A stretch of DNA of 64,000 bases from Eledone cirrhosa. Its lineage: Eukaryota. The notes below the pieces were generated by a model. The model was not told where the DNA came from, did no database searches, and saw only the letters and a program-made list of their open reading frames with translations. Where the stretch lies: the NCBI GenBank assembly GCA_964016885.1, contig OZ024743.1:76446001-76510000 (forward strand). The letters run 5' to 3'. A program made the translations under genes and the position numbers. Shown here in pieces: positions 26,897 through 64,000 of the stretch (the stretch's first letter is position 1; each line of letters starts with the position of its first letter).

Positions 26897-27075
26897 TGGC
26901 AGTATCGGTAGAGGGTTGGACGCTATGCTTTGCAGTATAGAGTTACGGTCCTTTACAGTCTGAGTTCAAATCCCACCGAGGTTAACTTTGCCTTTCATCC
27001 TTACGGGGTCGATAAAATAAAGTACCTGTAATGCACTGGGATAATTGCTGTCCTTGTGCCAAAAAGTAGAAGCAA
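26897..27075 (+). mobile_element. tRNA-derived SINE
   Basis: A-box-like TGGCAGTATCGG, B-box GAGTTCAAATCC and core GCCTTTCATCCTTACGGGGTCGATAAAATAAAGTACC. Homologous copies lie at 61270 and 63598. Confidence 0.85.
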
Positions 27076-28593: not shown

Positions 28594-28643
<50 letters not shown>

Positions 28644-28772
28644 AGAAGTTCTATTTAAATTGTTGGGATACAACAAGCAAATATTTTATAACTGATATAA
28701 AGCACTCAACAAATTATTGGAGTAAAAATACGATATATTAACAAATGGAAACTATATTTATAAAACCATATT

Positions 28773-28837
28773 TATTTCATTATACATATTTCAAGGACAC
28801 CAAGTTAAATTATGGTGTGCTTTCATCAGATAAAATA
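28773..28837 (-). ncRNA. Type I (minimal) hammerhead ribozyme in PLE 3' pseudo-LTR
   Basis: UAUUUUAU-CUGAUGA-AAGCACACCA(loop)UGGUGUCCUU-GAAA-UAUGUA-UA^AUGAAAUA. Stem I is 8 bp, stem II is 9 bp with one C.C mismatch, stem III is very short, and the cleavage triplet is AUA. Confidence 0.82.
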
Positions 28838-29010
28838 TAATATAGAGCAGTTTTATAAATAAATATTGACATACCCTTAAAGAATGCGACCATTACTGTT
28901 GGAAGCTCCCGGATAGTGGGGTTATAAATTTATTTATACTATTATGTAAATTAGTATTGGATATTTTTAAATTTAAATCAGAGTAGATTTAAATAAGCCG
29001 TTGGGTTACG

Positions 29011-29055
<45 letters not shown>

Positions 29056-29875
29056 ACAAGAGAGAGAAAAAAGAGAGAGATATAAAAAGAGAAAAAATAG
29101 CAAACCTCTAAGAAGAAAATAAGAAAAAAGAGAGAGAGAAAAGAAGAAGAAAAGAGAAAGCGAAAGCTCTAAGTGATAGGTTGTTGAGTTATCTTAACAT
29201 TTGAGATGAAGTGAAAGAATAAATATTTAATGGATGAATAGAGAAATGTAAATAAGCGTGAATGGAAAATACATACATAATAGGAAAATTTTAACCATTG
29301 TTTAAATATGATTAAATGTTTAGTTTATCATTTAAATTATTGAGATCTATACATTAAAAATTCAGATCTATATATTATTAAGAAATCTATATATTATTAA
29401 GACTATATATTATTAAAAAATCTATATATTATTAAAAGAATATATTCATATATATACATACGCACACACAGATATATATACATATAAATATATATGCATA
29501 CAAATATATATACATATACCTACATACATATACATATACATACAAAGTATAAAGGATTTTTTAATTTAAGATATAGGAATTTTCATAAACTTATAGATTT
29601 TTCTGAGAAAATCTTAGAAAAACCGAGAAAATTATTTCTAACTAATATCAAAACAGCGTGAAGGAAATTACGTTATTTAGTTATATAAATGTTACAAATG
29701 TTAAGATACTAAAGGAAATTTTAGGTTATACACACTTTATGTTATTATACAAATTTTTTTTAATATAAGTTTTATATCTAATAAATCCACCTGTTATGTA
29801 GTTGTGACTGTTATTATATAGGTTTGTTTATCACGAACCTTAAGAAAATCCTTATAAACGAGTGCAACCGAATTG

Positions 29876-29957
<82 letters not shown>

Positions 29958-30144
29958 ATCCCCACATAGATACACATAGACGTACCTACACATATAGGTA
30001 GATATGCATCACACATATACATATACATATACATACACACACATAAATATATATACATACATACATATATATATATACACATACATATAGAGAGAGAGAT
30101 ATATAAATACAGTACATAGTATAATTGAAGTACATAATATATAT

Positions 30145-30270
30145 AAAATAAAATAAAATAAAATAAAATTAAATTAAATTAAATTAAATTAAATTAAATT
30201 AAATTAAATTAAATTAAATTAAATTAAATTAAATTAAATTAAATTAAATTAAATTAAATTAAATTAAAAT
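30145..30270. repeat. (AAAAT)n/(AAATT)n pentanucleotide microsatellite inside the PLE 3' region
   Basis: Direct reading. Confidence 0.95.
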
Positions 30271-30671
30271 AAAAAAGAATTTTACGATTTGGAAATATAA
30301 TTATAAGTAATATAACTTTAAACCAATATAATTTTTAAAATATTATAGAATATTTCAAGTTATAATTTTAAAATAATAATATGTTTAATTGATTCAGTAT
30401 AAAAATTTTCTTCGTATGTTTAACTTAATTTTAGAGCCATAAGAGAAAGAAAGAGAAACTTTCAAAAGAGAAACTTTCAAAAATAGGAGAAACTTTCAAA
30501 TAATACTTTTCCCTTTTAAGAGCTTTCAGTATGTTTCTCTAGAAGAGTTTTTTATATTTATTTATATTTAGGAAGAAAAATTTTTTAACTTGAGAGTTTA
30601 AGCAGTCAAATGAAGGAATCTAATGATTTTTCGATAGGTTCAATATATTAATAGAATTAATTAATTATATA

Positions 30672-32873
30672 TTACATTTTAAATTTATATTTAAACGTTG
30701 AGTTCAATCTATGTCTGCAGTAACTGAATAAATTGTTCCTTAGGTTCAGGGAATTTTTGGTCTTTAATATAAAGAATATTTCCTCTATACAGAGATCACA
30801 ATTTTCTGAAGAGGAGTTAAAAGGAGTAGCTTTTGAAATAATATTCCAAAGCAACGAATATTTAACGTTCTTTCATTTGAGGTCCCATAATAAGCTAGAT
30901 AGAGAAGTTGAAGAATTTTTGTTTGGATGTGTAAAAGAATTTTTATGATTATTGAAACGGGATTTAAAATCTGAGGAAGTAGATCCCACATAATTAAATG
31001 AATTTAAATTAGGTTTTACATTACAATTATATACTATATTTTTAGCTAAGCAATTGTTATTTAACGGACAGTTAGATTTATTTCTACAGTTACATTTATC
31101 AAATTGGATATTGCTTGGGTTATTAGTGGTATTTTGGTTAGGCTTTAAATTTCTATTATTAATTCTATTAATATTTTGCGCTAAATCTTTGGTGAATGAA
31201 TAAGTTAATTTTATAGTATGTCTATTAAAAATTGAGTAATATCTATGTGTTCTAGGGAAGCATTTGTCAAGAGCTTTAAAGAATAGTTTAGCAATAGGGG
31301 TTTTAATATTTAATGAGAAAGGAGGAGCTAACCATAATATATTCCTAGTTCTATTTCTTTTTTTTTTTTCCGAATTATTGTAAGGTTTTCTATTATAGTT
31401 GTTAAAATTGTTAAAATATTTAAAATTGTTAAGATTATGGTTAGTTGCTATATTATTATTATCAATGTATTTAATTTTATTTCTATACCCAGCTTTACCT
31501 AACGCTTCGTTGTAATAATGTGCTTTATCATCAAATATATTCTTATTAGCTGAAATTCTAGAAATGCGTTGCTGTACAGAATTCACTATAGTATTTTTAA
31601 CGGATCTGGGGTGATTAGAGTTAAAATTAACGTAGTTTAAGTTCTCACTTAGTTTGTGAAATGGATAAAGAAGTCATGTGTTAAGGTTTAATGTTACATC
31701 TAGAAAGTTAACTATGTTATGGTTACTCTCTATTTCTACTTTTAGATTAAGGTAATTAAAAAATTGTATAATTTCTTTTCTTTTCCTATTTAATTCACAG
31801 TTATTATTTTCGATAAGTAAAAGCATGTCGTCACGATATAAACCTCCGGTCATCTCAGGTATTTTCCTATGTAGAGAATTATTTATAAAGAGGCCCACAA
31901 TATCCGTTACCTGAGCGGAATCGGATGATCCCATAGTTATATCAAAGTTATTATTTATATCTGCTCTAGTCCAGAGTTGGTTATTAAATTCTATTAATGT
32001 TTTCCGTGCCGATAATATAATGTGTATTTCATTACTAGTTAAGTCTGTATGTTTAAATGCGTAAGTTAGTGCTTTATTAAGTAGATTAGGAGTGATGGAT
32101 GAGTAATAATTAGCAATATCCAATTGAATAAACTTATTATTATAGTTATATTTAATTTCCTTAAACCAATCGATAACTTCACTAGTTCCTTTCCATAATT
32201 TTAAATTTCTTAATTTGTGGTATTATTCTGTCTAAAATATTCTTGCTAAGTCTGCCAAGGTCCGATTTAGATGGTGCAATTAATCTGACTGGTAAATCAG
32301 TTTCAAAGTTCCTTTTGTGATCCTTCATATTAATTTTAGGTTTCCTTGGCATGAAGGGTTGTGTCTTATTTTCAATGACTAGTTCATGCATTATATAAGA
32401 GGCATCTGTATTCAATTTTTCAAGGTCGTCATTATTTGTTACTTTGTATTTCTTCCTTAATTCCTTTAATATAAGATCGTTATAAATGTTCTTTTGTATT
32501 CCATAAAGATTATTGGTTTTGTCAGACTTGACTAGAATTTTCTCCGTTTTCTCCAAGTTTTCAATATTATTTTTGATACATCTTAAGTAATCCTGGCCTT
32601 TGAAGTTGTTTTTGAATTTGATGCTTTGGATGATAGATATGATTTCATTTTCAAAATCCATTAGTAGTTTGTTGGGGGGTCGATTTTTTTTAGATTTGAA
32701 GATTTTATCAAGATTGGAGACATTCTCATTTACATTAGATTTATCGAAGTGGAAAGCACGCCATCTGATTCTTCTTATAAAAGAGTCTGATTTTTTATTA
32801 ATTGTTTAATAAAGTCTTTATTCCTAGGTAAAGGTATGTCCTTTAGAGAAGAAGAGATCTTAAAGAATTCCAT
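30672..32873 (-). pseudogene. PLE reverse transcriptase + GIY-YIG endonuclease ORF, disrupted (2 frameshifts, 2 in-frame TGA)
   Basis: Reconstruction: MEFFKISSSLKDIPLP...IRRIRWRAFHF...KSDKTNNLY...KDHKRNF...PVRLIAPSKSDLGRLSK...FIQLDIANYYSSI...FDITMGSSDSAQVTDIVGL...GLYRDD...VNFLDVTLNL...SNHP...CNCRNKSNCPLNNNCL..NIVY...YVGST...FKSRFNNH...CDLCIEE...CRH. Frameshifts lie at ~32795 (T6 run) and ~32205; TGA codons at 31674-31676 and 30873-30875. Confidence 0.93.
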
Positions 32874-33665
32874 TTTTCAGTTATAATATAAAGCGCTCAA
32901 CAATAAAGGATGAGAATATATGTAGAAGTTCTATTTAAATTGTTGGGAAACAACAAGCAAATATTTTTATAATTGATATAAAGCACTCAACAAATTATTG
33001 GAGTATGTAGGTGTATGTATATATATTTGTATGTATATATATTTATATGTATATATATCTGTGTGTGCGTATGTATATATATGAATATATTCTTTTAATA
33101 ATTTATAGATTTTTTTTAATAATTTATAGTCTTAATAATATATAGATCTCAATTTTTAATGTATAGATCTCAATAATTTAAATGATAAACTAAACATTTA
33201 ATCATATTTAAACAATGGTTAAAATTTTCCTATTATGTATGTATTTTCCATTCACGCTTATTTACATTTCTCTATTCATCCATTAAATATTTATTCTTTC
33301 ACTTCATCTCAAATGTTAAGATAACTCAACAACCTATCACTTAGAGCTTTCGCTTTCTCTTTTGTTCTTCTTTTCTCTCTCTCTCTTTTTTCTTATTTTC
33401 TTCTTAGAGGTTTTTCTCTTTTTTTCTTTTTTCTCTTTTTTCTCTTTTTTCTCTTTTTTCTCTTTTTTCTCTTTTTTCTCTCTCACTCTCTCTTTCTCCG
33501 TAACCCAACGGCTTATTTAAATCTACTCTGATTTAAAAATATCCAATACTAATTTACATAATAGTATAAATAAATTTATAACCCCACTATCCGGGAGCTT
33601 CCAACAGTAATGGTCGCATTCTTTAAGGGTATGTCAATATTTATTTATAAAACTGCTCTATATTA

Positions 33666-33730
33666 TATTTTATCTGATGAAAGCACACCGTAATTTAACT
33701 TGGTGTCCTTGAAATATGTATAATGAAATA
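33666..33730 (+). ncRNA. Type I hammerhead ribozyme, second copy in inverted pseudo-LTR
   Basis: TATTTTAT CTGATGA AAGCACACCG...TGGTGTCCTT GAAA TATGTA TA ATGAAATA; one A>G change in stem II still pairs as G-U. Confidence 0.82.
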
Positions 33731-33771
33731 AATATGGTTTTATAAATATAGTTTCCATTTGTTAATATATC

Positions 33772-33873
<102 letters not shown>

Positions 33874-43112: not shown

Positions 43113-46100
43113 ATGCGTAGAGACATGGAACTTCACCGTTTGGTGTCCAAATGCGCGATTAGCCCACCGGGAGTGTGAAACCGCTAGTTCTTGTTAGGAC
43201 ATCTTAGAAGGAAAACTCTGATGTAAAACCTGCAACTCAATGGCAGCCAATGATGTTGACATGTTCTTCTTTTTGGATACCTGTCACCATTGTTCAGAGA
43301 GTGGGGTTGGCCCAGTGTAAGGTCTTTCTTGTCACCATTGTTCAGAGAGTGGGGTTGGTCCAGTGCAAGGTATTTCTTGTCACCATTGTTCAGAGAGTGG
43401 GGTTGGTCCAGTGCAAGGTCTTTCTTGTCACCATTGTTCAGAGAGTGGGGTTGGCCCAGTGCAAGGTATTTCTTGTCACCATTGTTCAGAGAGTGGGGTT
43501 GGCCCAGTGCAAAGTTTTTCTTGTCACCATTGTTCAGAGAGTGGGGTTGGCCCAGTGCAAGGTCTTTCTTGTCACCATTGTTCAGAGAGTGGGGTTGGTC
43601 CAGTGTAAGGTCTTTCTTGTCACCATTGTTCAGAGAGTGGGGTTGGCCCAGTGCAAGGTCTTTCTGGTCACAATTGTTCAGAGAGTGGGGTTGGTCCAGT
43701 GCAAGGTCTTTCTTGTCACCATTGTTCAGAGAGTGGGGTTGGTCCAGTGCAAGGTCTTTCTTGTCACCATTGTTCAGAGAGTGGGGTTGGCCCAGTGCAA
43801 GGTCTTTCTTGTCACCATTGTTCAGAGAGTGGGGTTGGCCCAGTGCAAGGTCTTTCTTGTCACCATTGTTCAGAGAGTGGGGTTGGCCCAGTGCAAGGTC
43901 TTTCTTGTCACCATTGTTCAGAGAATGGGGTTGGTCCAGTGCAAGGTCTTTCTTGTCACCATTGTTCAGAGAGTGGGGTTGGCCCAGTGCAAGGTCTTTC
44001 TTGTCACCATTGTTCAGAGAGTGGGGATGGCCCAGTGCAAGGTCTTTCTTGTCACCATTGTTCAGAGAGTGGGGTTGGTCCAGTGCAAGGTCTTTCTTGT
44101 CACCATTGTTCAGAGAGTGGGGTTGGCCCAGTGCAAGGTCTTTCTTGTCACCATTGTTCAGAGAGTGGGGTTGGCCCAGTGCAAGGTCTTTCTTGTCACC
44201 ATTGTTCAGAGAGTGGGGTTGGTCCAGTGCAAGGTCTTTCTTGTCACCATTGTTCAGAGAGTGGGGTTGGTCCAGTGTAAGGTCTTTCTTGTCACCATTG
44301 TTCAGAGAGTGGGGTTGGCCCAGTGCAAGGTCTTTCTTGTCACCATTGTTCAGAGAGTGGGGTTGGTCCAGTGTAAGGTCTTTCTTGTCACCATTGTTCA
44401 GAGAGTGGGGTTGGCCCAGTGCAAGGTCTTTCTTGTCACCATTGTTCAGAGAGTGGGGTTGGCCCAGTGCAAGGTCTTTCTTGTCACCATTGTTCAGAGA
44501 GTGGGGTTGGTCCAGTGTAAGGTCTTTCTTGTCACCATTGTTCCAGAGAGTGGGGTTGGCTCAGTGTAAGGTCTTTCTTGTCACCATTGTTCAGAGAGTG
44601 GGGTTGGCCCAGTGCAAGGTCTTTCTTGTCACCATTGTTCAGAGAGTGGGGTTGGCCCAGTGCAAGGTCTTTCTTGTCACCATTGTTCAGAGAGTGGGGT
44701 TGGTCCAGTGCAAGGTCTTTCTTGTCACCATTGTTCAGAGAGTGGGGTTGGTCCAGTGTAAGGTCTTTCTTGTCACCATTGTTCAGAGAGTGGGGTTGGC
44801 CCAGTGCAAGGTCTTTCTTGTCACCATTGTTCAGAGAGTGGGGTTGGTCCAGTGTAAGGTCTTTCTTGTCACCATTGTTCAGAGAGTGGGGTTGGCCCAG
44901 TGCAAGGTCTTTCTTGTCACCATTGTTCAGAGAGTGGGGTTGGTCCAGTGTAAGGTCTTTCTTGTCACCATTGTTCAGGGAGTGGGGTTGGCCCAGTGCA
45001 AGGTCTTTCTTGTCACCATTGTTCAGAGAGTGGGGTTGGTCCAGTGTAAGGTCTTTCTTGTCACCATTGTTCAGAGAGTGGGGTTGGTCCAGTGCAAGCT
45101 CTTTCTTGTCACCATTGTTCAGAGAGTGGGGTTGGCCCAGTGCAAGGTCTTTCTTGTCACCATTGTTCAGAGAGTGGGGTTGGTCCAGTGTAAGGTCTTT
45201 CTTGTCACCATTGTTCAGAGAGTGGGGTTGGCCCAGTGCAAGGTCTTTCTTGTCACTATTGTTCAGAGAGTGGGGTTGGTCCAGTGTAAGGTCTTTCTTG
45301 TCACCATTGTTCAGAGAGTGGGGTTGGCCCAGTGCAAGGTCTTTCTTGTCACCATTGTTCAGAGAGTGGGGTTGGTCCAGTGTAAGGTCTTTCTTGTCAC
45401 CAATGTTCAGAGAGTGGGGTTGGCCCAGTGCAAGGTCTTTCTTGTCACCATTGTTCAGAGAGTGGGGTTCGCCCAGTGCAAGGTCTTTCTTGTCACCATT
45501 GTTCAGAGAGTGGGGTTGGTCCAGTGTAAGGTCTTTCTTGTCACCATTGTTCAGAGAGTGGGGTTGGCCCAGTGTAAGGTCTTTCTTGTCACCATTGTTC
45601 AGAGAGTGGGGTTGGTCCAGTGCAAGGTCTTTCTTGCCACCATTGTTCAGAGAGTGGGGTTGGCCCAGTGTAAGGTCTTTCTTGTCACCATTGTTCAGAG
45701 AGTGGGGTTGGTCCAGTGCAAGGTCTTTCTTGTCACCATTGTTCAGAGAGTGGGGTTGGTCCAGTGTAAGGTCTTTCTTGTCACCATTGTTCAGAGAGTG
45801 GGGTTGGTCCAGTGCAAGGTCTTTCTTGTCACCATTGTTCAGAGAGTGGGGTTAGTCCAGTGCAAGGTCTTTCTTGTCACCATTGTTCAGAGTGGGGTTG
45901 GTCCAGTGTAAGGTCTTTCTTGTCACCATTGTTCAGAGAGTGGGGTTGGCCCAGTGTAAGGTCTTTCTTGTCACCATTGTTCAGAGAGTGGGGTTGGTCC
46001 AGTGCAAGGTCTTTCTTGTCACCATTGTTCAGAGAGTGGGGTTGGTCCAGTGTAAGGTCTTTCTTGTCACCATTGTTCAGAGAGTGGGGTTGGTCCAGTG

Positions 46101-49100
46101 TAAGGTCTTTCTTGTCACCATTGTTCAGAGAGTGGGGTTGGTCCAGTGCAAGTTCTTTCTTGTCACCATTGTTCAGAGAGTGGGGTTGGTCCAGTGCAAG
46201 GTCTTTCTTGTCACCATTGTTCAGAGAGTGGGGTTGGTCCAGTGCAAGGTCTTTCTTGTCACCATTGTTCAGAGAGTGGGGTTGGTCCAGTGCAAGGTCT
46301 TTCTTGTCACCATTGTTCAGAGAGTGGGGTTGGTCCAGTGCAAGGTCTTTCTTGTCACCATTGTTCAGAGAGTGGGGTTGGTCCAGTGCAAGGTCTTTCT
46401 TGTCACCATTGTTCAGAGAGTGGGGTTGGTCCAGTGCAAGGTCTTTCTTGTCACCATTGTTCAGAGAGTGGGGTTGGTCCAGTGTAAGGTCTTTCTTGTC
46501 AGCATTGTTCAGAGAGCGGGGTTGGCCCAGTGTAAGGTATTTCTTGTCACCATTGTTCAGAGAGTGGGGTTGGTCCAGTGCAAGGTCTTTCTTGTCACCA
46601 TTGTTCAGAGAGTGGGGTTGGTCCAGTGTAAGGTCATTCTTGTCACCATTGTTCAGAGAGTGGGTTGGTCCAGTGCAAGGTCTTTCTTGTCACCATTGTT
46701 CAGAGAGTGGGGTTGGTCCAGTGCAAGGTCTTTCTTGTCACCATTGTTCAGAGAGTGGGGTTGGTCCAGTGTAAGGTCTTTCTTGTCACCATTGTTCAGA
46801 GAGTGGGGTTGGCCCAGTGTAAGGTCTTTCTTGTCACCATTGTTCAGAGAGTGGGGTTGGTCCAGTGCAAGGTCTTTCTTGTCACCATTGTTCAGAGAGT
46901 GGGGTTGGTCCAGTGTAAGGTCTTTCTTGTCACCATTGTTCAGAGAGTGGGGTTGGTTCAGTGTAAGGTCTTTCTTGTCACCATTGTTCAGAGAGTGGGG
47001 TTGGTCCAGTGTAAGGTCTTTCTTGTCACCATTGTTCAGAGAGTGGGGTTGGCCCAGTGTAAGGTCTTTCTTGTCACCATTGTTCAGAGAGTGGGGTTGG
47101 TCCAGTGCAAGGTCTTTCTTGTCACCATTGTTCAGAGAGTGGGGTTGGTCCAGTGTAAGGTCTTTCTTGTCACCATTGTTCAGAGAGTGGGGTTGGCCCA
47201 GTGTAAGGTCTTTCTTGTCACCATTGTTCAGAGAGTGGGGTTGGTCCAGTGTAAGGTCTTTCTTGTCACCATTGTTCAGAGAGTGGGGTTGGCCCAGTGC
47301 AAGGTCTTTCTTGTCACCATTGTTCAGAGAGTGGGGTTGGCCCAGTGCAAGGTCTTTCTTGTCACCATTGTTCAGAGAGTGGGGTTGGTCCAGTGTAAGG
47401 TCTTTCTTGTCACCATTGTTCAGAGAGTGGGGTTGGCCCAGTGCAAGGTCTTTCTTGTCACCATTGTTCAGAGAGTGGGGTTGGCCCAGTGCAAGGTCTT
47501 TCTTGTCACCATTGTTCAGAGAGTGGGGTTGGTCCAGTGCAAGGTCTTTCTTGTCACCATTGTTCAGAGAGTGGGGTTGGTCCAGTGTAAGGTCTTTCTT
47601 GTCACCATTGTTCAGAGAGTGGGGTTGGTCCAGTGCAAGGTCTTTCTTGTCACCATTGTTCAGAGAGTGGGGTTAGTCCAGTGCAAGGTCTTTCTTGTCA
47701 CCATTGTTCAGAGTGGGGTTGGTCCAGTGTAAGGTCTTTCTTGTCACCATTGTTCAGAGAGTGGGGTTGGCCCAGTGTAAGGTCTTTCTTGTCACCATTG
47801 TTCAGAGAGTGGGGTTGGTCCAGTGCAAGGTCTTTCTTGTCACCATTGTTCAGAGAGTGGGGTTGGTCCAGTGTAAGGTCTTTCTTGTCACCATTGTTCA
47901 GAGAGTGGGGTTGGTCCAGTGCAAGGTCTTTCTTGTCACCATTGTTCAGAGAGTGGGGTTGGTCCAGTGCAAGGTCTTTCTTGTCACCATTGTTCAGAGA
48001 GTGGGGTTGGTCCAGTGTAAGGTCTTTCTTGTCACCATTGTTCAGAGAGTGGGGTTGGTCCAGTGCAAGGTCTTTCTTGTCACCATTGTTCAGAGAGTGG
48101 GGTTGGTCCAGTGCAAGGTCTTTCTTGTCACCATTGTTCAGAGAGTGGGGTTGGTCCAGTGCAAGGTCTTTCTTGTCACCATTGTTCAGAGAGTGGGGTT
48201 GGTCCAGTGTAAGGTCTTTCTTGTCACCATTGTTCAGAGAGCGGGGTTGGCCCAGTGTAAGGTATTTCTTGTCACCATTGTTCAGAGAGTGGGGTTGGTT
48301 CAGTGCAAGGTCTTTCTTGTCACCATTGTTCAGAGAGTGGGGTTGGTCCAGTGTAAGGTCATTCTTGTCACCATTGTTCAGAGAGTGGGGTTGGTCCAGT
48401 GCAAGGTCTTTCTTGTCACCATTGTTCAGAGAGTGGGGTTGGTCCAGTGCAAGGTCTTTCTTGTCACCATTGTTCAGAGAGTGGGGTTGGTCCAGTGTAA
48501 GGTCTTTCTTGTCACCATTGTTCAGAGAGTGGGGTTAGCTCAGTGTAAGGTCTTTCTTGTCACCATTGTTCAGAGAGTGGGGTTGGCCCAGTGCAAGGTC
48601 TTTCTTGTCACCATTGTTCAGAGAGTGGGGTTGGCCCAGTGCAAGGTCTTTCTTGTCACCATTGTTCAGAGAGTGGGGTTGGTCCAGTGTAAGGTCTTTC
48701 TTGTCACCATTGTTCAGAGAGTGGGGTTGGCCCAGTGCAAGGTCTTTCTTGTCACCATTGTTCAGAGAGTGGGGTTGGCCCAGTGCAAGGTCTTTCTTGT
48801 CACCATTGTTCAGAGAGTGGGGTTGGCCCAGTGCAAGGTCTTTCTTGTCACCATTGTTCAGAGAGTGGGGTTGGTCCAGTGCAAGGTCTTTCTTGTCACC
48901 ATTGTTCAGAGAGTGGGGTTGGTCCAGTGTAAGGTCTTTCTTGTCACCATTGTTCAGAGAGTGGGGTTGGTCCAGTGCAAGGTCTTTCTTGTCACCATTG
49001 TTCAGAGAGTGGGGTTAGTCCAGTGCAAGGTCTTTCTTGTCACCATTGTTCAGAGTGGGGTTGGTCCAGTGTAAGGTCTTTCTTGTCACCATTGTTCAGA

Positions 49101-52100
49101 GAGTGGGGTTGGCCCAGTGTAAGGTCTTTCTTGTCACCATTGTTCAGAGAGTGGGGTTGGTCCAGTGCAAGGTCTTTCTTGTCACCATTGTTCAGAGAGT
49201 GGGGTTGGTCCAGTGTAAGGTCTTTCTTGTCACCATTGTTCAGAGAGTGGGGTTGGTCCAGTGCAAGGTCTTTCTTGTCACCATTGTTCAGAGAGTGGGG
49301 TTGGTCCAGTGCAAGGTCTTTCTTGTCACCATTGTTCAGAGAGTGGGGTTGGTCCAGTGTAAGGTCTTTCTTGTCACCATTGTTCAGAGAGTGGGGTTGG
49401 TCCAGTGCAAGGTCTTTCTTGTCACCATTGTTCAGAGAGTGGGGTTGGTCCAGTGCAAGGTCTTTCTTGTCACCATTGTTCAGAGAGTGGGGTTGGTCCA
49501 GTGCAAGGTCTTTCTTGTCACCATTGTTCAGAGAGTGGGGTTGGTCCAGTGTAAGGTCTTTCTTGTCACCATTGTTTAGAGAGCGGGGTTGGCCCAGTGT
49601 AAGGTATTTCTTGTCACCATTGTTCAGAGAGTGGGGTTGGTCCAGTGCAAGGTCTTTCTTGTCACCATTGTTCAGAGAGTGGGGTTGGTCCAGTGTAAGG
49701 TCATTCTTGTCACCATTGTTCAGAGAGTGGGGTTGGTCCAGTGCAAGGTCTTTCTTGTCACCATTGTTCAGAGAGTGGGGTTGGTCCAGTGCAAGGTCTT
49801 TCTTGTCACCATTGTTCAGAGAGTGGGGTTGGTCCAGTGTAAGGTCTTTCTTGTCACCATTGTTCAGAGAGTGGGGTTGGCCCAGTGTAAGGTCTTTCTT
49901 GTCACCATTGTTCAGAGAGTGGGGTTGGTCCAGTGCAAGGTCTTTCTTGTCACCATTGTTCAGAGAGTGGGGTTGGTCCAGTGTAAGGTCTTTCTTGTCA
50001 CCATTGTTCAGAGAGTGGGGTTGGTTCAGTGTAAGGTCTTTCTTGTCACCATTGTTCAGAGAGTGGGGTTGGTCCAGTGTAAGGTCTTTCTTGTCACCAT
50101 TGTTCAGAGAGTGGGGTTGGCCCAGTGTAAGGTCTTTCTTGTCACCATTGTTCAGAGAGTGGGGTTGGTCCAGTGCAAGGTCTTTCTTGTCACCATTGTT
50201 CAGAGAGTGGGGTTGGTCCAGTGTAAGGTCTTTCTTGTCACCATTGTTCAGAGAGTGGGGTTGGCCCAGTGTAAGGTCTTTCTTGTCACCATTGTTCAGA
50301 GAGTGGGGTTGGTCCAGTGTAAGGTCTTTCTTGTCACCATTGTTCAGAGAGTGGGGTTGGCCCAGTGCAAGGTCTTTCTTGTCACCATTGTTCAGAGAGT
50401 GGGGTTGGCCCAGTGCAAGGTCTTTCTTGTCACCATTGTTCAGAGAGTGGGGTTGGTCCAGTGTAAGGTCTTTCTTGTCACCATTATTCAGAGAGTGGGG
50501 TTGGCTCAGTGTAAGGTCTTTCTTGTCACCATTGTTCAGAGAGTGGGGTTGGCCCAGTGCAAGGTCTTTCTTGTCACCATTGTTCAGAGAGTGGGGTTGG
50601 CCCAGTGCAAGGTCTTTCTTGTCACCATTGTTCAGAGAGTGGGGTTGGCCCAGTGCAAGGTCTTTCTTGTCACCATTGTTCAGAGAGTGGGGTTGGTCCA
50701 GTGCAAGGTCTTTCTTGTCACCATTGTTCAGAGAGTGGGGTTGGTCCAGTGTAAGGTCTTTCTTGTCACCATTGTTCAGAGAGTGGGGTTGGTCCAGTGC
50801 AAGGTCTTTCTTGTCACCATTGTTCAGAGAGTGGGGTTAGTCCAGTGCAAGGTCTTTCTTGTCACCATTGTTCAGAGTGGGGTTGGTCCAGTGTAAGGTC
50901 TTTCTTGTCACCATTGTTCAGAGAGTGGGGTTGGCCCAGTGTAAGGTCTTTCTTGTCACCATTGTTCAGAGAGTGGGGTTGGTCCAGTGCAAGGTCTTTC
51001 TTGTCACCATTGTTCAGAGAGTGGGGTTGGTCCAGTGTAAGGTCTTTCTTGTCACCATTGTTCAGAGAGTGGGGTTGGTCCAGTGCAAGGTCTTTCTTGT
51101 CACCATTGTTCAGAGAGTGGGGTTGGTCCAGTGCAAGGTCTTTCTTGTCACCATTGTTCAGAGAGTGGGGTTGGTCCAGTGTAAGGTCTTTCTTGTCACC
51201 ATTGTTCAGAGAGTGGGGTTGGTCCAGTGCAAGGTCTTTCTTGTCACCATTGTTCAGAGAGTGGGGTTGGTCCAGTGCAAGGTCTTTCTTGTCACCATTG
51301 TTCAGAGAGTGGGGTTGGTCCAGTGCAAGGTCTTTCTTGTCACCATTGTTCAGAGAGTGGGGTTGGTCCAGTGTAAGGTCTTTCTTGTCACCATTGTTTA
51401 GAGAGCGGGGTTGGCCCAGTGTAAGGTATTTCTTGTCACCATTGTTCAGAGAGTGGGGTTGGTCCAGTGCAAGGTCTTTCTTGTCACCATTGTTCAGAGA
51501 GTGGGGTTGGTCCAGTGTAAGGTCATTCTTGTCACCATTGTTCAGAGAGTGGGGTTGGTCCAGTGCAAGGTCTTTCTTGTCACCATTGTTCAGAGAGTGG
51601 GGTTGGTCCAGTGCAAGGTCTTTCTTGTCACCATTGTTCAGAGAGTGGGGTTGGTCCAGTGTAAGGTCTTTCTTGTCACCATTGTTCAGAGAGTGGGGTT
51701 GGCCCAGTGTAAGGTCTTTCTTGTCACCATTGTTCAGAGAGTGGGGTTGGTCCAGTGCAAGGTCTTTCTTGTCACCATTGTTCAGAGAGTGGGGTTGGTC
51801 CAGTGTAAGGTCTTTCTTGTCACCATTGTTCAGAGAGTGGGGTTGGTTCAGTGTAAGGTCTTTCTTGTCACCATTGTTCAGAGAGTGGGGTTGGTCCAGT
51901 GTAAGGTCTTTCTTGTCACCATTGTTCAGAGAGTGGGGTTGGCCCAGTGTAAGGTCTTTCTTGTCACCATTGTTCAGAGAGTGGGGTTGGTCCAGTGCAA
52001 GGTCTTTCTTGTCACCATTGTTCAGAGAGTGGGGTTGGTCCAGTGTAAGGTCTTTCTTGTCACCATTGTTCAGAGAGTGGGGTTGGCCCAGTGTAAGGTC

Positions 52101-55100
52101 TTTCTTGTCACCATTGTTCAGAGAGTGGGGTTGGTCCAGTGTAAGGTCTTTCTTGTCACCATTGTTCAGAGAGTGGGGTTGGCCCAGTGCAAGGTCTTTC
52201 TTGTCACCATTATTCAGAGAGTGGGGTTGGCCCAGTGCAAGGTCTTTCTTGTCACCATTGTTCAGAGAGTGGGGTTGGTCCAGTGCAAGGTCTTTCTTGT
52301 CACCATTGTTCAGAGAGTGGGGTTGGTCCAGTGCAAGGTCTTTCTTGTCACCATTGTTCAGAGAGTGGGGTTAGTCCAGTGCAAGGTCTTTCTTGTCACC
52401 ATTGTTCAGAGAGTGGGGTTGGCCCAGTGCAAGGTCTTTCTTGTCACCATTGTTCAGAGAGTGGGGTTGGTCCAGTGTAAGGTCTTTCTTGTCACCATTG
52501 TTCAGAGAGTGGGGTTGGCCCAGTGCAAGGTCTTTCTTGTCACCATTGTTCAGAGAGTGGGGTTGGCCCAGTGCAAGTTCTTTCTTGTCACCATTGTTCA
52601 GAGAGTGGGGTTGGCCCAGTGCAAGGTCTTTCTTGTCACCATTGTTCAGAGAGTGGGGTTGGTCCAGTGCAAGGTCTTTCTTGTCACCATTGTTCAGAGA
52701 GTGGGGTTGGTCCAGTGTAAGGTCTTTCTTGTCACCATTGTTCAGAGAGTGGGGTTGGCTCAGTGTAAGGTCTTTCTTGTCACCATTGTTCAGAGAGTGG
52801 GGTTGGCCCAGTGCAAGGTCTTTCTTGTCACCATTGTTCAGAGAGTGGGGTTGGCCCAGTGCAAGGTCTTTCTTGTCACCATTGTTCAGAGAGTGGGGTT
52901 GGTCCAGTGCAAGGTCTTTCTTGTCACCATTGTTCAGAGAGTGGGGTTGGCCCAGTGCAAGGTCTTTCTTGTCACCATTGTTCAGAGAGTGGGGTTGGTC
53001 CAGTGCAAGGTCTTTCTTGTCACCATTGTTCAGAGAGTGGGGTTGGCCCAGTGCAAGGTCTTTCTTGTCACCATTGTTCAGAGAGTGGGGTTGGTCCAGT
53101 GTAAGGTCTTTCTTGTCACCATTGTTCAGAGAGTGGGGTTACCCCGGTGCAAGGTCTTTCTTGTCACCATTGTTCAGAGAGTGGGGTTGGTCCAGTGTAA
53201 GGTCTTTCTTGTCACCATTGTTCAGAGAGTGGGGTTGGCCCAGTGCAAGGTCTTTCTTGTCACCATTGTTCAGAGAGTGGGGTTGGCCCAGTGCAAGGTC
53301 TTTCTTGTCACCATTGTTCAGAGAGTGGGGTTGGCCCAGTGCAAGGTCTTTCTTGTCACCATTGTTCAGAGAGTGGGGTTGGTCCAGTGCAAGGTCTTTC
53401 TTGTCACCATTGTTCAGAGAGTGGGGTTGGTCCAGTGTAAGGTCTTTCTTGTCACCATTGTTCAGAGAGTGGGGTTGGTCCAGTGCAAGGTCTTTCTTGT
53501 CACCATTGTTCAGAGAGTGGGGTTGGTCCAGTGTAAGGTCTTTCTTGTCACCATTGTTCAGAGAGTGGGGTTGGCCCAGTGTAAGGTCTTTCTTGTCACC
53601 ATTGTTCAGAGAGTGGGGTTGGTCCAGTGCAAGGTCTTTCTTGTCACCATTGTTCAGAGAGTGGGGTTGGTCCAGTGTAAGGTCTTTCTTGTCACCATTG
53701 TTCAGAGAGTGGGGTTGGTTCAGTGTAAGGTCTTTCTTGTCACCATTGTTCAGAGAGTGGGGTTGGTCCAGTGTAAGGTCTTTCTTGTCACCATTGTTCA
53801 GAGAGTGGGGTTGGCCCAGTGTAAGGTCTTTCTTGTCACCATTGTTCAGAGAGTGGGGTTGGTCCAGTGCAAGGTCTTTCTTGTCACCATTGTTCAGAGT
53901 GGGATTGGTCCAGTGTAAGGTCTTTCTTGTCACCATTGTTCAGAGAGTGGGGTTGGCCCAGTGTAAGGTCTTTCTTGTCACCATTGTTCAGAGAGTGGGG
54001 TTGGTCCAGTGCAAGGTCTTTCTTGTCACCATTGTTCAGAGAGTGGGGTTGGTCCAGTGTAAGGTCTTTCTTGTCACCATTGTTCAGAGAGTGGGGTTGG
54101 TCCAGTGCAAGGTCTTTCTTGTCACCATTGTTCAGAGAGTGGGGTTGGCTCAGTGTAAGGTCTTTCTTGTGACCATTGTTCAGAGAGTGGGGCTGGTCCA
54201 GTGTAAGGTCTTTCTTGTCACCATTGTTCAGAGAGTGGGGTTGGCCCAGTGCAAGGTCTTTCTTGTCACCATTGTTCAGAGAGTGGGGTTGGCCCAGTGC
54301 AAGGTCTTTCTTGTCACCATTGTTCAGAGAGTGGGGTTGGTCCAGTGCAAGGTCTTTCTTGTCACCATTGTTCAGAGAGTGGGGTTGGTCCAGTGTAAGG
54401 TCTTTCTTGTCACCATTGTTCAGAGAGTGGGGTTGGTCCAGTGCAAGGTCTTTCTTGTCACCATTGTTCAGAGAGTGGGGTTGGTCCAGTGTAAGGTCTT
54501 TCTTGTCACCATTATTCAGAGAGTGGGGTTGGCTCAGTGTAAGGTCTTTCTTGTCACCATTGTTCAGAGAGTGGGGTTGGCCCAGTGCAAGGTCTTTCTT
54601 GTCACCATTGTTCAGAGAGTGGGGTTGGTCCAGTGCAAGGTCTTTCTTGTCACCATTGTTCAGAGAGTGGGGTTGGCCCAGTGCAAGGTCTTTCTTGTCA
54701 CCATTGTTCAGAGAGTGGGGTTGGCCCAGTGTAAGGTCTTTCTTGTCACCATTGTTCAGAGAGTGGGGTTGGTCCAGTGCAAGGTCTTTCTTGTCACCAT
54801 TGTTCAGAGAGTGGGGTTGGTCCAGTGTAAGGTCTTTCTTGTCACCATTGTTCAGAGAGTGGGGTTGGTTCAGTGCAAGGTCTTTCTTGTCACCATTGTT
54901 CAGAGTGGGGTTGGTCCAGTGTAAGGTCTTTCTTGTCACCATTGTTCAGAGAGTGGGGTTGGCCCAGTGTAAGGTCTTTCTTGTCACCATTGTTCAGAGA
55001 GTGGGGTTGGTCCAGTGCAAGGTCTTTCTTGTCACCATTGTTCAGAGAGTGGGGTTGGTCCAGTTTAAGGTCTTTCTTGTCACCATTGTTCAGAGAGTGG

Positions 55101-58100
55101 GGTTGGCCCAGTGTAAGGTCTTTCTTGTCACCATTGTTCAGAGAGTGGGGTTGGTCCAGTGCAAGGTCTTTCTTGTCACCATTGTTCAGAGAGTGGGGTT
55201 GGTCCAGTGTAAGGTCTTTCTTGTCACCATTGTTCAGAGAGTGGAGTTGGCCCAGTGCAAGGTCTTTCTTGTCACCATTGTTCAGAGATTGGGGTTGGCC
55301 CAGTGCAAGGTCTTTCTTGTCACCATTGTTCAGAGAGTGGGGTTGGTTCAGTGCAAGGTCTTTCTTGTCACCATTGTTCAGAGAGTGGGGTTGGTTCAGT
55401 GTAAGGTCTTTCTTGTCACCATTGTTCAGAGAGTGGGGTTGGTCCAGTGTAAGGTCTTTCTTGTCACCATTGTTCAGAGAGTGGGGTTGGCCCAGTGTAA
55501 GGTCTTTCTTGTCACCATTGTTCAGAGAGTGGGGTTGGTCCAGTGTAAGGTCTTTCTTGTCACCATTGTTCAGAGAGTGGGGTTGGTCCAGTGCAAGGTC
55601 TTTCTTGTCACCATTGTTCAGAGAGTGGGGTTGGTCCAGTGCAAGGTCTTTCTTGTCACCATTGTTCAGAGAGTGGGGTTGGTCCAGTGTAAAGTCTTTC
55701 TTGTCACCATTGTTCAGAGAGTGGGATTGGCCCAGTGCAAGGTCTTTCTTGTCACCATTGTTCAGAGAGTGGGGTTGGCCCAGTGCAAGGTCTTTCTTGT
55801 CACCATTGTTCAGAGAGTGGGGTTGGTTCAGTGCAAGGTCTTTCTTGTCACCATTGTTCAGAGAGTGGGGTTGGTCCAGTGTAAGGTCTTTCTTGTCACC
55901 ATTGTTCAGAGAGTGGGGTTGGTTCAGTGTAAGGTCTTTCTTGTCACTATTGTTCAGAGAGTGGGGTTGGTCCAGTGTAAGGTCTTTCTTGTCACCATTG
56001 TTCAGAGAGTGGGGTTGGCCCAGTGTAAGGTCTTTCTTGTCACCATTGTTCAGAGAGTGGGGTTGGTCCAGTGCAAGGTCTTTCTTGTCACCATTGTTCA
56101 GAGAGTGGGGTTGGTCCAGTGTAAGGTCTTTCTTGTCACCATTGTTCAGAGAGTGGGGTTGGCCCAGTGTAAGGTCTTTCTTGTCACCATTGTTCAGAGA
56201 GTGGGGTTGGTCCAGTGCAAGGTCTTTCTTGTCACCATTGTTCAGAGAGTGGGGTTGGTCCAGTGTAAGGTCTTTCTTGTCACCATTGTTCAGAGAGTGG
56301 AGTTGGCCCAGTGCAAGGTCTTTCTTGTCACCATTGTTCAGAGAGTGGGGTTGGTCCAGTGTAAAGTCTTTCTTGTCACCATTGTTCAGAGAGTGGGGTT
56401 GGCCCAGTGCAAGGTCTTTCTTGTCACCATTGTTCAGAGAGTGGGGTTGGCCCAGTGCAAGGTCTTTCTTGTCACCATTGTTCAGAGAGTGGGGTTGGTT
56501 CAGTGCAAGGTCTTTCTTGTCACCATTGTTCAGAGAGTGGGGTTGGTTCAGTGTAAGGTCTTTCTTGTCACCATTGTTCAGAGAGTGGGGTTGGCCCAGT
56601 GTAAGGTCTTTCTTGTCACCATTGTTCAGAGAGTGGGGTTGGTCCAGTGTAAGGTCTTTCTTGTCACCATTGTTCAGAGAGTGGGGTTGGCCCAGTGTAA
56701 GGTCTTTCTTGTCACCATTGTTCAGAGAGTGGGGTTGGTCCAGTGCAAGGTCTTTCTTGTCACAATTGTTCTGAGAGTGGGGTTGGTCCAGTGTAAGGTC
56801 TTTCTTGTCACAATTGTTCTGAGAGTGGGGTTGGTCCAGTGTAAGGTCTTTCTTGTCACCATTGTTCAGAGAGTGGGGTTGGCCCAGTGTAAGGTCTTTC
56901 TTGTCACCATTGTTCAGAGAGTGGGGTTGGCCCAGTGTATGGTCTTTCTTGTCACCATTGTTCAGAGAGTGGGGTTGGCCCAGTGAAGGTCTTTCTTGCC
57001 ACCATTGTTCAGAGAGTGGGGTTGGTCCAGTGCAAGGTCTTTCTTGTCACAATTGTTCTGAGAGTGGGGTTGGTCCAGTGTAAGGTCTTTCTTGTCACAA
57101 TTGTTCTGAGAGTGGGGTTGGTCCAGTGTAAGGTCTTTCTTGTCACCATTGTTCAGAGAGTGGGGTTGGCCCAGTGTAAGGTCTTTCTTGTCACCATTGT
57201 TCAGAGAGTGGGGTTGGCCCAGTGTATGGTCTTTCTTGTCACCATTGTTCAGAGAGTGGGGTTGGCCCAGTGAAGGTCTTTCTTGCCACCATTGTTCAGA
57301 GAGTGGGGTTGGTCCAGTGCAAGGTCTTTCTTGTCACCATTGTTCAGAGAGTGGGGTTGGTCTAGTGTAAGGTCTTTCTTGTCACCATTGTTCAGAGAGT
57401 GGGGTTGGCCCAGTGTAAGGTCTTTCTTGTCACCATTGTTCAGAGATTGGTGTTGGCCCAGTGCAAGTTCTTTCTTGTCACCATTGTTCAGAGAGTGGGT
57501 TGGCCCAGTGTAAGGTCTTTCTTGTCACCATTGTTCAGAGAGTGGGGTTGGCTCAGTGCAAGGTCTTTCTTGTCACCATTGTTCAGAGAGTGGGGTTGGT
57601 CCAGTGTAAGGTCTTTCTTGTCACCATTGTTCAGAGAGTGGGGTTGGTCCAGTGCAAGGTCTTTCTTGTCACCATTGTTCAGAGAGTGGGGTTGGTCCAG
57701 TGTAAGGTCTTTCTTGTCACCATTGTTCAGAGAGTGGGGTTGGCCCAGTGTAAGGTCTTTCTTGTCACCATTGTTCAGAGAGTGGGGTTGGCTCAGTGCA
57801 AGGTCTTTCTTGTCACCATTGTTCAGAGAGTGGGGTTGGTCCAGTGCAAGTTCTTTCTTGTCACCATTGTTCAGAGAGTGGGGTTGGTCCAGTGTAAGGT
57901 CTTTCTTGTCACCATTGTTCAGAGAGTGGGGTTGGTCCAGTGCAAGGTTTTTCTTGTCACCATTGTTCAGAGAGTGGGGTTGGCTCAGTGCAAGGTCTTT
58001 CTTGTCACCATTGTTCAGAGAGTGGGGTTGGTCCAGTGCAAGGTATTTCTTGTCACCATTGTTCAGAGAGTGGGGTTGGCTCAGTGTAAGGTCTTTCTTG

Positions 58101-58530
58101 TCACCATTGTTCAGAGAGTGGGGTTGGCCCAGTGCAAGGTCTTTCTTGTCACCATTGTTCAGAGAGTGGGGTCTGTCCAGTGTAAGGTCTTTCTTGTCAC
58201 CATTGTTCAGAGAGTGGGGTTGGCCCAGTGTAAGGTCTTTCTTGTCACGATTGTTCAGAGAGTGGGGTTGGTCCAGTGCAAGGTCTTTCTTGTCACCATT
58301 GTTCAGAGAGTGGGGTTGGCCCAGTGCAAGGTCTTTCTTGTCACCATTGTTCAGAGAGTGGGGTTGGCCCAGTGCAAGGTCTTTCTTGTCACCATTGTTC
58401 AGAGAGTGGGGTTGCCAGTGTATGTTTTGGTTGCCAACTCTGCGCAAGACATTTTAGATCATTGGGTGGGCTGAAAAACCAAATTCGATCGCTGAACTGT
58501 TAATTGTTATTGTGTGTGTGTATGTGTATA

Positions 58531-61009: not shown

Positions 61010-61457
<448 letters not shown>

Positions 61458-61603
61458 GTATTATATATATATATTTACTCGTGTCTCCACCTAAACACAC
61501 CGAACGTATCTATTAACTAAATGTGTGCACTCTGAACAGTTTATTGCCACTGTATAACTGCAATTCGACAGATTCACTGAATTTATACCAGCGATCTTCG
61601 TTA

Positions 61604-61641
<38 letters not shown>

Positions 61642-61644
<3 letters not shown>

Positions 61645-62153
61645 CATGGCTATAAAATTGAGGGTTGTTTGTATAATTGCAAACAAATAGAATGTTATTA
61701 ATATTCGAAAAACTCAGATTACATTTATTGTATTCAGCAATGTAGAGCGAAATTTTCTTTTTTATTTGAATTTGGCAAAGTCAGCCATTTGTCGCTCGTA
61801 TACAGGAAACTGACTGGTCAGTCTGCTGATATGCAAAATGGCTGATCAGTGGATCCGCTAATATGCAGATCTTACTGATCAGCCAGTCTGCTAATATGCA
61901 AATCAAGCTGATCAGTCACTGTATATTTTTGAAAATAGCATATATTTTCACTAGCTCTGACAGTTGGCAGGTGAACAGAGAGCTGTACTGATGAAGGGTG
62001 ATACCCAGAAACATTAGTGTCTGCAGTTCTGTTCGCATGCCAACATAAGAGCAAGAATGAAGTGTTCATTCTACTGACATGGCTATAAAATTGAGGCTTG
62101 TTTGCATAATTGCAAACGAATCGAATGTTATTATTAATATTCGAAAAATTCAG

Positions 62154-62157
<4 letters not shown>
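61642..62157 (+). mobile_element. Retrozyme-like non-coding element (433-bp unit + ~80-bp terminal direct repeat) in (TA)n
   Basis: Direct repeats at 61642-61721 and 62075-62157, an internal hammerhead, no credible ORF and (TA)n flanks. Confidence 0.72.
61971..62036 (+). ncRNA. Type I hammerhead ribozyme with GUC cleavage site
   Basis: GUGAACAGA-GAGCUGUA-CUGAUGA-A-GGGU-GAU-ACCC-A-GAAA-CA-UUAG-UG-UC^UGCAGUUC-UGUUCGC; all three stems pair. Confidence 0.85.
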
Positions 62158-62233
<76 letters not shown>

Positions 62234-63123: not shown

Positions 63124-63512
63124 TTTCAAGCTGTTATATTTCAAGCTATGTTATATTTCAAGCTCTGTTATATTTCAAGCTATGTTATATTTCAAGCTAT
63201 GTTATATTTCAAGCTATGTTATATTTCAAGCTATGTTATATTTCAAGCTATGTTATATTTCAAGCTATGTTATATTTCAAGCTCTGTTATATTTCAAGCT
63301 ATGTTATATTTCAAGCTATGTTATATTTCAAGCTATGTTATATTTCAAGCTATGTTATATTTCAAGCTATGTTATATTTCAAGCTATGTTATATTTCAAG
63401 CTATGTTATATTTCAAGCTATGTTATATTTCAAGCTATGTTATATTTCAAGCTATATTATATTTCAAGCTATGTTATATTTCAAGCTATGTTATATTTCA
63501 AGCTATGTTATA
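63124..63512. repeat. 17-bp minisatellite (CAAGCTATGTTATATTT), ~23 copies
   Basis: Direct reading; all three forward frames show 17-aa periodicity. Confidence 0.97.
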
Positions 63513-63597
63513 TTAAAGACAACACTGTATTCATATTTCATATATTTTTCATTAACATTTTTTTCATATTACTATTACGTTTGGTTTGGAATAATAA

Positions 63598-63776
63598 TTG
63601 TTTCTACATTTGGCACAAGGACAGCAATTATCCAGTACTTTACTGGTACTTTATTTTATCGACCCCGTAAGGATGAAAAGCAAAGTTAACCTCGGCGGGA
63701 TCTGAACTCAGATCGTAAAGGGACGTAACTATGCTGGGAAGCATGGCGTCCGACTCTCTACCTATACTGCCAATCC
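63598..63776 (-). mobile_element. tRNA-derived SINE (same family), minus strand
   Basis: Reverse complement of TGGCAGTATAGG...GAGTTCAGATCCCGCCGAGG...TTTTCATCCTTACGGGGTCGATAAAATAAAGTACC...CCTTGTGCCAAATGTAGAAACAA. Confidence 0.87.
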
Positions 63777-64000
63777 CTGTCGTTTCGAGTCTTTCACATA
63801 AAGTTGTAATGGTGTGTTGTTAGCAAAGGACCATGGAAGTATATATAAGTTCACTACCATACCAGTATGTATAACACACACTGACTTACATACTTAACAC
63901 AATATACCTTTAAAAACACATACATTTAAACATACACATACACTCACACATAATATCGACACTAATACACACAAACACACCTCTTTTGCATTCCAAATCG

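Follow-up and report, generated by a model that had tools for sequence, protein, structure and literature searches.

A dispersed 438-nt hammerhead element family of Eledone cirrhosa with Penelope-like insertion anatomy and 5' ends clustered at the predicted ribozyme cut

Introduction

Metazoan non-LTR retrozymes have been proposed to be moved by Penelope-like elements (PLEs), both by Cervera and de la Pena (2020; PMC7229834) and by Li, Clavereau and Pollet (2026; preprint 10.64898/2026.07.22.740005). Since the 2026 preprint already treats animal retrozymes as non-autonomous PLE derivatives (building on vertebrates, co-occurrence and pseudo-LTR (pLTR) homology), the class to which we assign the elements described here is already known. 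In the papers cited here, movement of retrozymes by PLEs is argued from coexistence and homology. Two further papers describe the role of hammerheads in the Penelope cycle as unclear (Craig et al., 2021; PMC8557442) and as dispensable in vitro (Frangieh et al., 2024; PMC11167929).

The features of PLE insertions named in PMC8557442 are fixed ends, a tail, a pseudo-LTR, an inverted arm and microsatellite targets. The tail has been shown to be the stretch separating two internal reverse-transcription start sites (PMC11167929). We compared these systems with an element located near the end of a 64,000-nt stretch of Eledone cirrhosa DNA, which was analyzed as a whole and is further referred to as the window.

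Organization of the insertion in the window

The element is inserted at 61642..62157 on the plus strand. It spans ~1.19 units, starts at unit position u1, ends at the shorter of two 3' end classes, lacks an inverted arm and is ~96% identical to the family consensus. This consensus was built from the 30 best copies, and 'u' coordinates are positions in its 438-nt unit. The initial annotation had described a ~80-bp terminal direct repeat, (TA)n on either side and no credible ORF, and all three observations hold. The 5' partial copy or pseudo-LTR (61642..61721, plus strand) is repeated at 62075..62157 (plus strand), with a spacing of 433 nt and an identity of 90-92%, and this 3' repeat copy stops at the short 3' end, where it abuts (TA)n. 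The target tracts, to which no strand applies, are found at 61608..61642 (5' side) and 62156..62223 (3' side). The longest ATG frames in the circularised consensus are only 56 aa (plus strand) and 83 aa (minus strand). The 433-nt unit given initially stands as the repeat spacing in the window, whereas the unit of the family is 438 nt; the window copy has small deletions relative to it. Two further parts can be distinguished on the plus strand, namely a 'tail' of ~35 nt (61728..61762) that separates the two fixed 3' ends of the family and is internal in the window copy, and three diverged ~33-nt repeats (61798..61922) that form a long rod when folded.

The remainder of the window is rich in satellites, with a 37-bp unit at 4-26189 (708 copies), a 48-bp unit at 43282-58414 (316 copies) and a 17-bp unit at 63124-63514 (23 copies). 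Broken frames on the minus strand at 38690-41000 presumably resemble a LINE-type reverse transcriptase.

Hammerhead motif and predicted folds

A type I hammerhead with an extended, bulged stem I is located at 61963..62044 on the plus strand, with a predicted cut after 62021. On the same strand it comprises the core CUGAUGA (61988-61994), stem II (61996-62006), GAAA (62008-62011), a stem III of 3 bp with a UUAG loop (62011-62020) and the GUC triplet, of which C17 is position 62021. The motif had been annotated as fully pairable, and indeed all 29 of its 29 pairs are standard. The core is near-invariant across 48 aligned family rows, and two additional A's bordering stem II (61995 and 62007) are invariant in 48/48 of them. 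Stem III is self-complementary, making dimer pairing possible. An unpaired base ahead of stem II and a palindromic loop III have both been described for hammerheads (PMC4209133). The Rfam hammerhead models gave no match in the window or in the element. As the window copy carries a single hammerhead, release of a cut-to-cut monomer from that copy itself is impossible.

Folding of the hammerhead domain (z = -5.95) and of the whole unit (z = -7.72) stands out against shuffled sequences. The minimum-energy fold is an off state in which the core pairs with stem III, and it lies 7.9 kcal/mol below the hammerhead fold. Between two subfamilies (the second is older and ~84% identical), stem I shows two double-compensatory changes and several wobble-compatible ones. 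The stem I cells are able to pair in 95% of cases, compared with 29-46% when the partners are slid. This covariation indicates that the predicted fold has been under selection, with few independent events (two, between two subfamilies).

A family of thousands of copies

The family consists of thousands of dispersed non-coding copies. A first look yielded 4268 candidates in the 3.0-Gb genome, with 850 exact matches to the 41-nt hammerhead core and 1622 to a 35-nt stretch close to the 3' end. With 438 nt and 39% GC, the consensus unit (C17 at u385) falls within the size range of non-LTR retrozymes (~150-450 nt). The family is also present in contigs from four public runs of one study, with TA joined at 61728 in 41-45 contigs per run. 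A metagenome scan using the hammerhead core returned 0 matches. No report of a 438-nt element family was found in the literature searched, most subscription papers and Repbase/Dfam being outside this search. We classify the elements as a new family within the known class of non-LTR retrozymes or non-autonomous PLEs.

A ~190-nt SINE-like repeat sits at u56 in ~35 segments (201 loci; e.g., L012, L053, L060 and L155). Its 3' junction is fixed and its short duplications are variable, marking this site as a strong target hot spot. Free copies of the repeat are found in the window near 26897-27075, 61268-61460 and 63600-63790.

Insertion anatomy

To describe the 3' ends, 85 loci anchored near the 3' end were used, yielding 159 segments, or 150 after removal of nine SINE-split pieces. 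Short ends at u80-96 (66 segments) and long ends at u112-129 (47 segments) account for 113 of these 150, while the other 37 end elsewhere. The two fixed ends are thus ~35 nt apart. (TA)n adjoins 58/66 short and 44/47 long ends, i.e., 102 of the 113 canonical ends. Permuted start points, as expected from the initial annotation, are not seen: only the 5' ends vary, by 5' truncation. The fixed 3' ends led us to reject random circular permutation of the copies. From the same combination of fixed 3' ends and variable 5' truncation it follows that the ~80-bp terminal repeat is a partial-tandem pseudo-LTR.

An inverted arm is present at 14 of 27 ribozyme-anchored places, and paired inverted arms frequently combine one short and one long end. 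The family hence displays a partial-tandem pseudo-LTR, 5' truncation, an inverted arm, a 30-40-bp tail and a microsatellite bias, all of them features by which a non-autonomous PLE is recognized. The tail at 61728..61762 likely corresponds, by analogy with described PLEs, to the stretch between two reverse-transcription start sites. In L159, L199, L211 and L221, inverted arms of the long 3' end that are only a few bases long lie beside copies starting at the cut; such arms fit a single event in which both sites were primed.

A candidate helper in the window

The window also contains a frameshifted PLE of the Hydra clade (28641..33773, minus strand), with a reverse transcriptase, a C-terminal GIY-YIG-type domain, a minimal hammerhead and an inverted 5' arm. 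Open frames of its family contain the motifs RW(R/K), DKT, CxCX5C, CxxC and CxH as well as a C-terminal endonuclease, by which it can be placed in the Hydra clade as characterized in PMC8557442. An identity as Naiad or Neptune was dropped, since the motifs fit Hydra. A Pfam search gave no relevant match for this element. Its family is represented by 70,966 first-look candidates, with open frames of ~740 aa in some copies. The members carry a minimal, palindromic hammerhead, are inserted in (TA)n and have two end classes of their own, a ~85-nt tail and inverted 5' arms (window 28641-33773, L068-L106).

The initial annotation pointed to a likeness between the small element and this PLE, and to integration by a (TA)n-targeting PLE. 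The two-end, TA-flanked layout is indeed common to both, and the PLE anatomy at (TA)n agrees with such an integration; however, there is no DNA similarity between the 438-nt unit and the Hydra family of the window. Neither does the unit share 3' sequence with 84 minimal-hammerhead termini taken from the flanks. The more general proposal of a retrozyme-like, non-coding and PLE-mobilised family is supported.

One locus links both families. Within a single TA-bounded unit, L213 contains a family arm running from the long end to exactly u386 and a second arm spanning u399-u54, and continues into a Hydra 3' fragment that stops at the Hydra short end. This single case is most simply accounted for by a template switch within one insertion event, but it could also be a later insertion followed by a deletion. 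Judged from these sequence features, the helper of the 438-nt family is likely to be a PLE of the Hydra clade similar to that at 28641, but no more than likely, as other PLE families are present. The flanks of L001-L106 contain at least eight further minimal hammerhead families with palindromic loops III of differing sequence, which indicates that PLE families are many. Hydra-like 3' fragments from the flanks, a small and mixed sample, begin within 20 nt after their own cut in 0/24 cases.

5' ends at the predicted cut

Of the 106 segments whose 3' end is canonical, 23 have their 5' end in u386-405, compared with 5.4 expected (p = 2e-8), and only two in u376-385. Genome-wide junction patterns, for which two non-consensus bases were required ahead of the start, gave 64 matches at u386, 14 at u381, 15 at u376, 50 at u391 and 17 at u416. 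Upon inspection, true 5' ends were recognized at u386 in 25/30 cases by script and 24/30 by eye, at u381 in 10/14 by script and 5-6/14 by eye, at u391 in 9/15 and at u416 in 3/15. We estimate that ~50 copies start at the cut itself (u386), ~6-10 five bases upstream and ~3 thirty bases downstream. About eight of the 30 inspected u386 junctions are ambiguous due to palindromes or complementarity to stem I.

The pile-up at u386 is likely a genomic record of hammerhead cleavage in vivo, from which we infer that the ribozyme may partially cleave its RNA in the germ line. In the literature searched (most subscription papers being outside the search), we found no report of 5' ends mapping to a hammerhead cut. 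At L216:1195-1240, the 5' end of a two-unit copy is joined to the hammerhead of a different element, either at its predicted cut or directly beside it. This is a single case, which may reflect either chance microhomology or a join at the RNA level.

Proposed cycle and alternative explanations

We consider it quite probable that the ORF-less 438-nt hammerhead family is copied into (TA)n by the reverse transcriptase and endonuclease of a PLE, from RNA that is partly cut by the ribozyme. The cycle would start with the transcription of copies that have two hammerheads or more than one unit. The helper protein would then nick (TA)n and prime cDNA inside the RNA at ~u90 or ~u124, and priming at both sites would give the paired inverted arms. 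Finally, the enzyme would either run off at the cut RNA (u386) or cross an uncut or re-joined site into the next unit, leading to copies of 1-2 units such as the one in the window. Such read-through could take place on a multimer that has escaped cutting, on a ligated circle or on a monomer that is cut but still clamped by stem I. Points that weigh against this reading include the off state as minimum-energy fold, the two additional A's of the core, and the fact that just one of nine Xenopus retrozymes cleaved in vitro (preprint 10.64898/2026.07.22.740005).

The classical retrozyme cycle, the version put forward in the initial annotation, is a sub-case of this explanation, in which two-hammerhead copies would release a 438-nt monomer and the ligated circle would be the main template. 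We regard this as possible, though on balance doubtful. Hammerheads on the same strand and 437-444 nt apart form four pairs among the first 100 of the 850 core matches, and two-hammerhead copies occur at four of the 27 ribozyme-anchored places. In a pooled and partly selected sample of 384 unique segments from 201 loci, 70 segments span at least one full unit and only one spans two, without visible masters; the longest segment in a later search is 911 nt. Internal priming requires RNA that continues past the genomic 3' end (PMC11167929), which a circle provides, and circular RNAs have been shown for coral, mussel and axolotl retrozymes (PMC7229834). In addition, a second cluster of stops at u96-135, about one lap further, contains 10 stops where 2.2 are expected. 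A U-rich tract or a start of transcription would fit this cluster too, however. Moreover, u386 is not an end in a closed circle, whereas 13/20 second-pass copies (most of them from the 30 best-scoring loci) stop in u383-405. Long master arrays may also exist: no array beyond ~2.2 units was found in a search that used 1.3 units plus flank and scored 40 of 7025 candidates.

A more complete reading would regard the DNA as a record of the full cycle. In it, the ribozyme would cut in germ-line cells, a 438-nt circle, closed or nicked, would serve as template, and a Hydra-clade enzyme, identified as the helper by a template switch, would prime at two sites and halt either where the RNA is cut or once it has gone round the template. 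We put this forward tentatively, as a somewhat improbable whole. If true, it would be direct evidence, at the genomic level, for an influence of hammerhead cleavage on the shape of Penelope-type insertions and for retrotransposition of retrozyme circles by PLEs.

It is unlikely, by our estimate, that the 5'-end cluster is due only to stalling of the reverse transcriptase in stem I and palindrome-guided joining, with an inactive or irrelevant ribozyme. The cluster does cover u386-405 within stem I, the off fold is energetically favored, and cleavage was dispensable for insertion of a lizard PLE in vitro, with no reads ending at the cut (PMC11167929). The plateau at u387-405 falls in the 3' strand of the long stem and contains short palindromes, so stalling or microhomology joining accounts for part of it. 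On the other hand, the peak is located at the stem base that is unwound last and not at the stem entry (four events in u406-415), and the number of 5' ends falls within five bases upstream of it. The rod at u158-285 is longer but has no comparable spike, and both arms of L217 and of L223 begin at the predicted cut. The peak at the final stem base, the sharp upstream drop and the spike-free rod favor a physical RNA end. The junction errors expected from nick jumping were not clearly enriched among the inspected u386 junctions.

The alternative named in the initial annotation, an autonomous PLE elsewhere whose pseudo-LTRs, solo or in tandem, make up the copies, is very improbable and largely refuted for the bulk of the copies: their insertion anatomy equals that of PLE ends and 28/201 loci hold Hydra ORF pieces, but these pieces vary in distance and strand, every copy of the 30-best set reaching beyond u124 in the 5' direction goes on there with the tail of the unit itself, 70 free 5' flanks have no common non-element junction except a SINE, and three match pairs 4-7 kb apart, considered as the ends of an ORF element, turned out to be independent insertions. 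As no copy runs upstream into an ORF, the element is not simply a PLE end. A rare or extinct autonomous parent is possible as the origin of the family.

Under the preferred reading of copying from partly cut RNA, the family offers thousands of copies, helper frames that are naturally open, and exact predictions for the start sites and for the RNA end. This allows the role of the hammerhead and mobilization by PLEs to be tested together in a single in vitro system, as well as by a simple genome-wide count that could be repeated in any species. The naturally open Hydra-clade frames of ~740 aa are a candidate for an in vitro system of this clade. Within the literature searched, we found no earlier case in which 5' ends were used to trace cleavage.

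Comparison with known systems

Four described systems come closest. Like the metazoan non-LTR retrozymes (PMC7229834; preprint 10.64898/2026.07.22.740005), the 438-nt family is small, low in GC, non-coding and self-paired with a type I hammerhead, and it coexists with PLEs bearing minimal hammerheads. Retrozymes are defined as tandem dimers to long multimers, whereas the copies of this family are mostly dispersed and span fewer than 1.5 units. Circles have been shown for retrozymes, while the 438-nt family is known from DNA alone and has an explicit PLE insertion anatomy. It also differs by the additional A's on both sides of stem II and in that we detected no homology to the pLTR of a helper. 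Such homology between retrozymes and pLTRs is reported in Xenopus (preprint 10.64898/2026.07.22.740005), but is absent between the 438-nt unit and the Hydra family.

MRC1 of Chlamydomonas (Craig et al., 2021; PMC8557442) is similarly ORF-less, has pseudo-LTRs and head-to-tail insertions and uses PLE machinery. Elements of the MRC1 type, which are members of the largely hammerhead-free Chlamys clade, generally have 3' sequence in common with an autonomous family. In the 438-nt family, no such shared 3' end was detected and the hammerhead is complete.

The PAc Poseidon element of the green anole (Frangieh et al., 2024; PMC11167929) resembles the family in its two fixed ends and a 30-40-nt tail. 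Both have AT-rich targets, and in both the hammerhead lies upstream of where reverse transcription starts. In contrast to the 438-nt family, PAc is autonomous; it could dispense with cleavage in vitro and no RNA reads ended at the cut, whereas genomic 5' ends of the 438-nt family peak there.

The PLE at 28641, finally, shares with the described Hydra-clade PLEs (PMC8557442) the common motifs, the C-terminal endonuclease, insertion in (TA)n and the hammerhead, and differs in being very abundant and in its longer tail (~85 nt).
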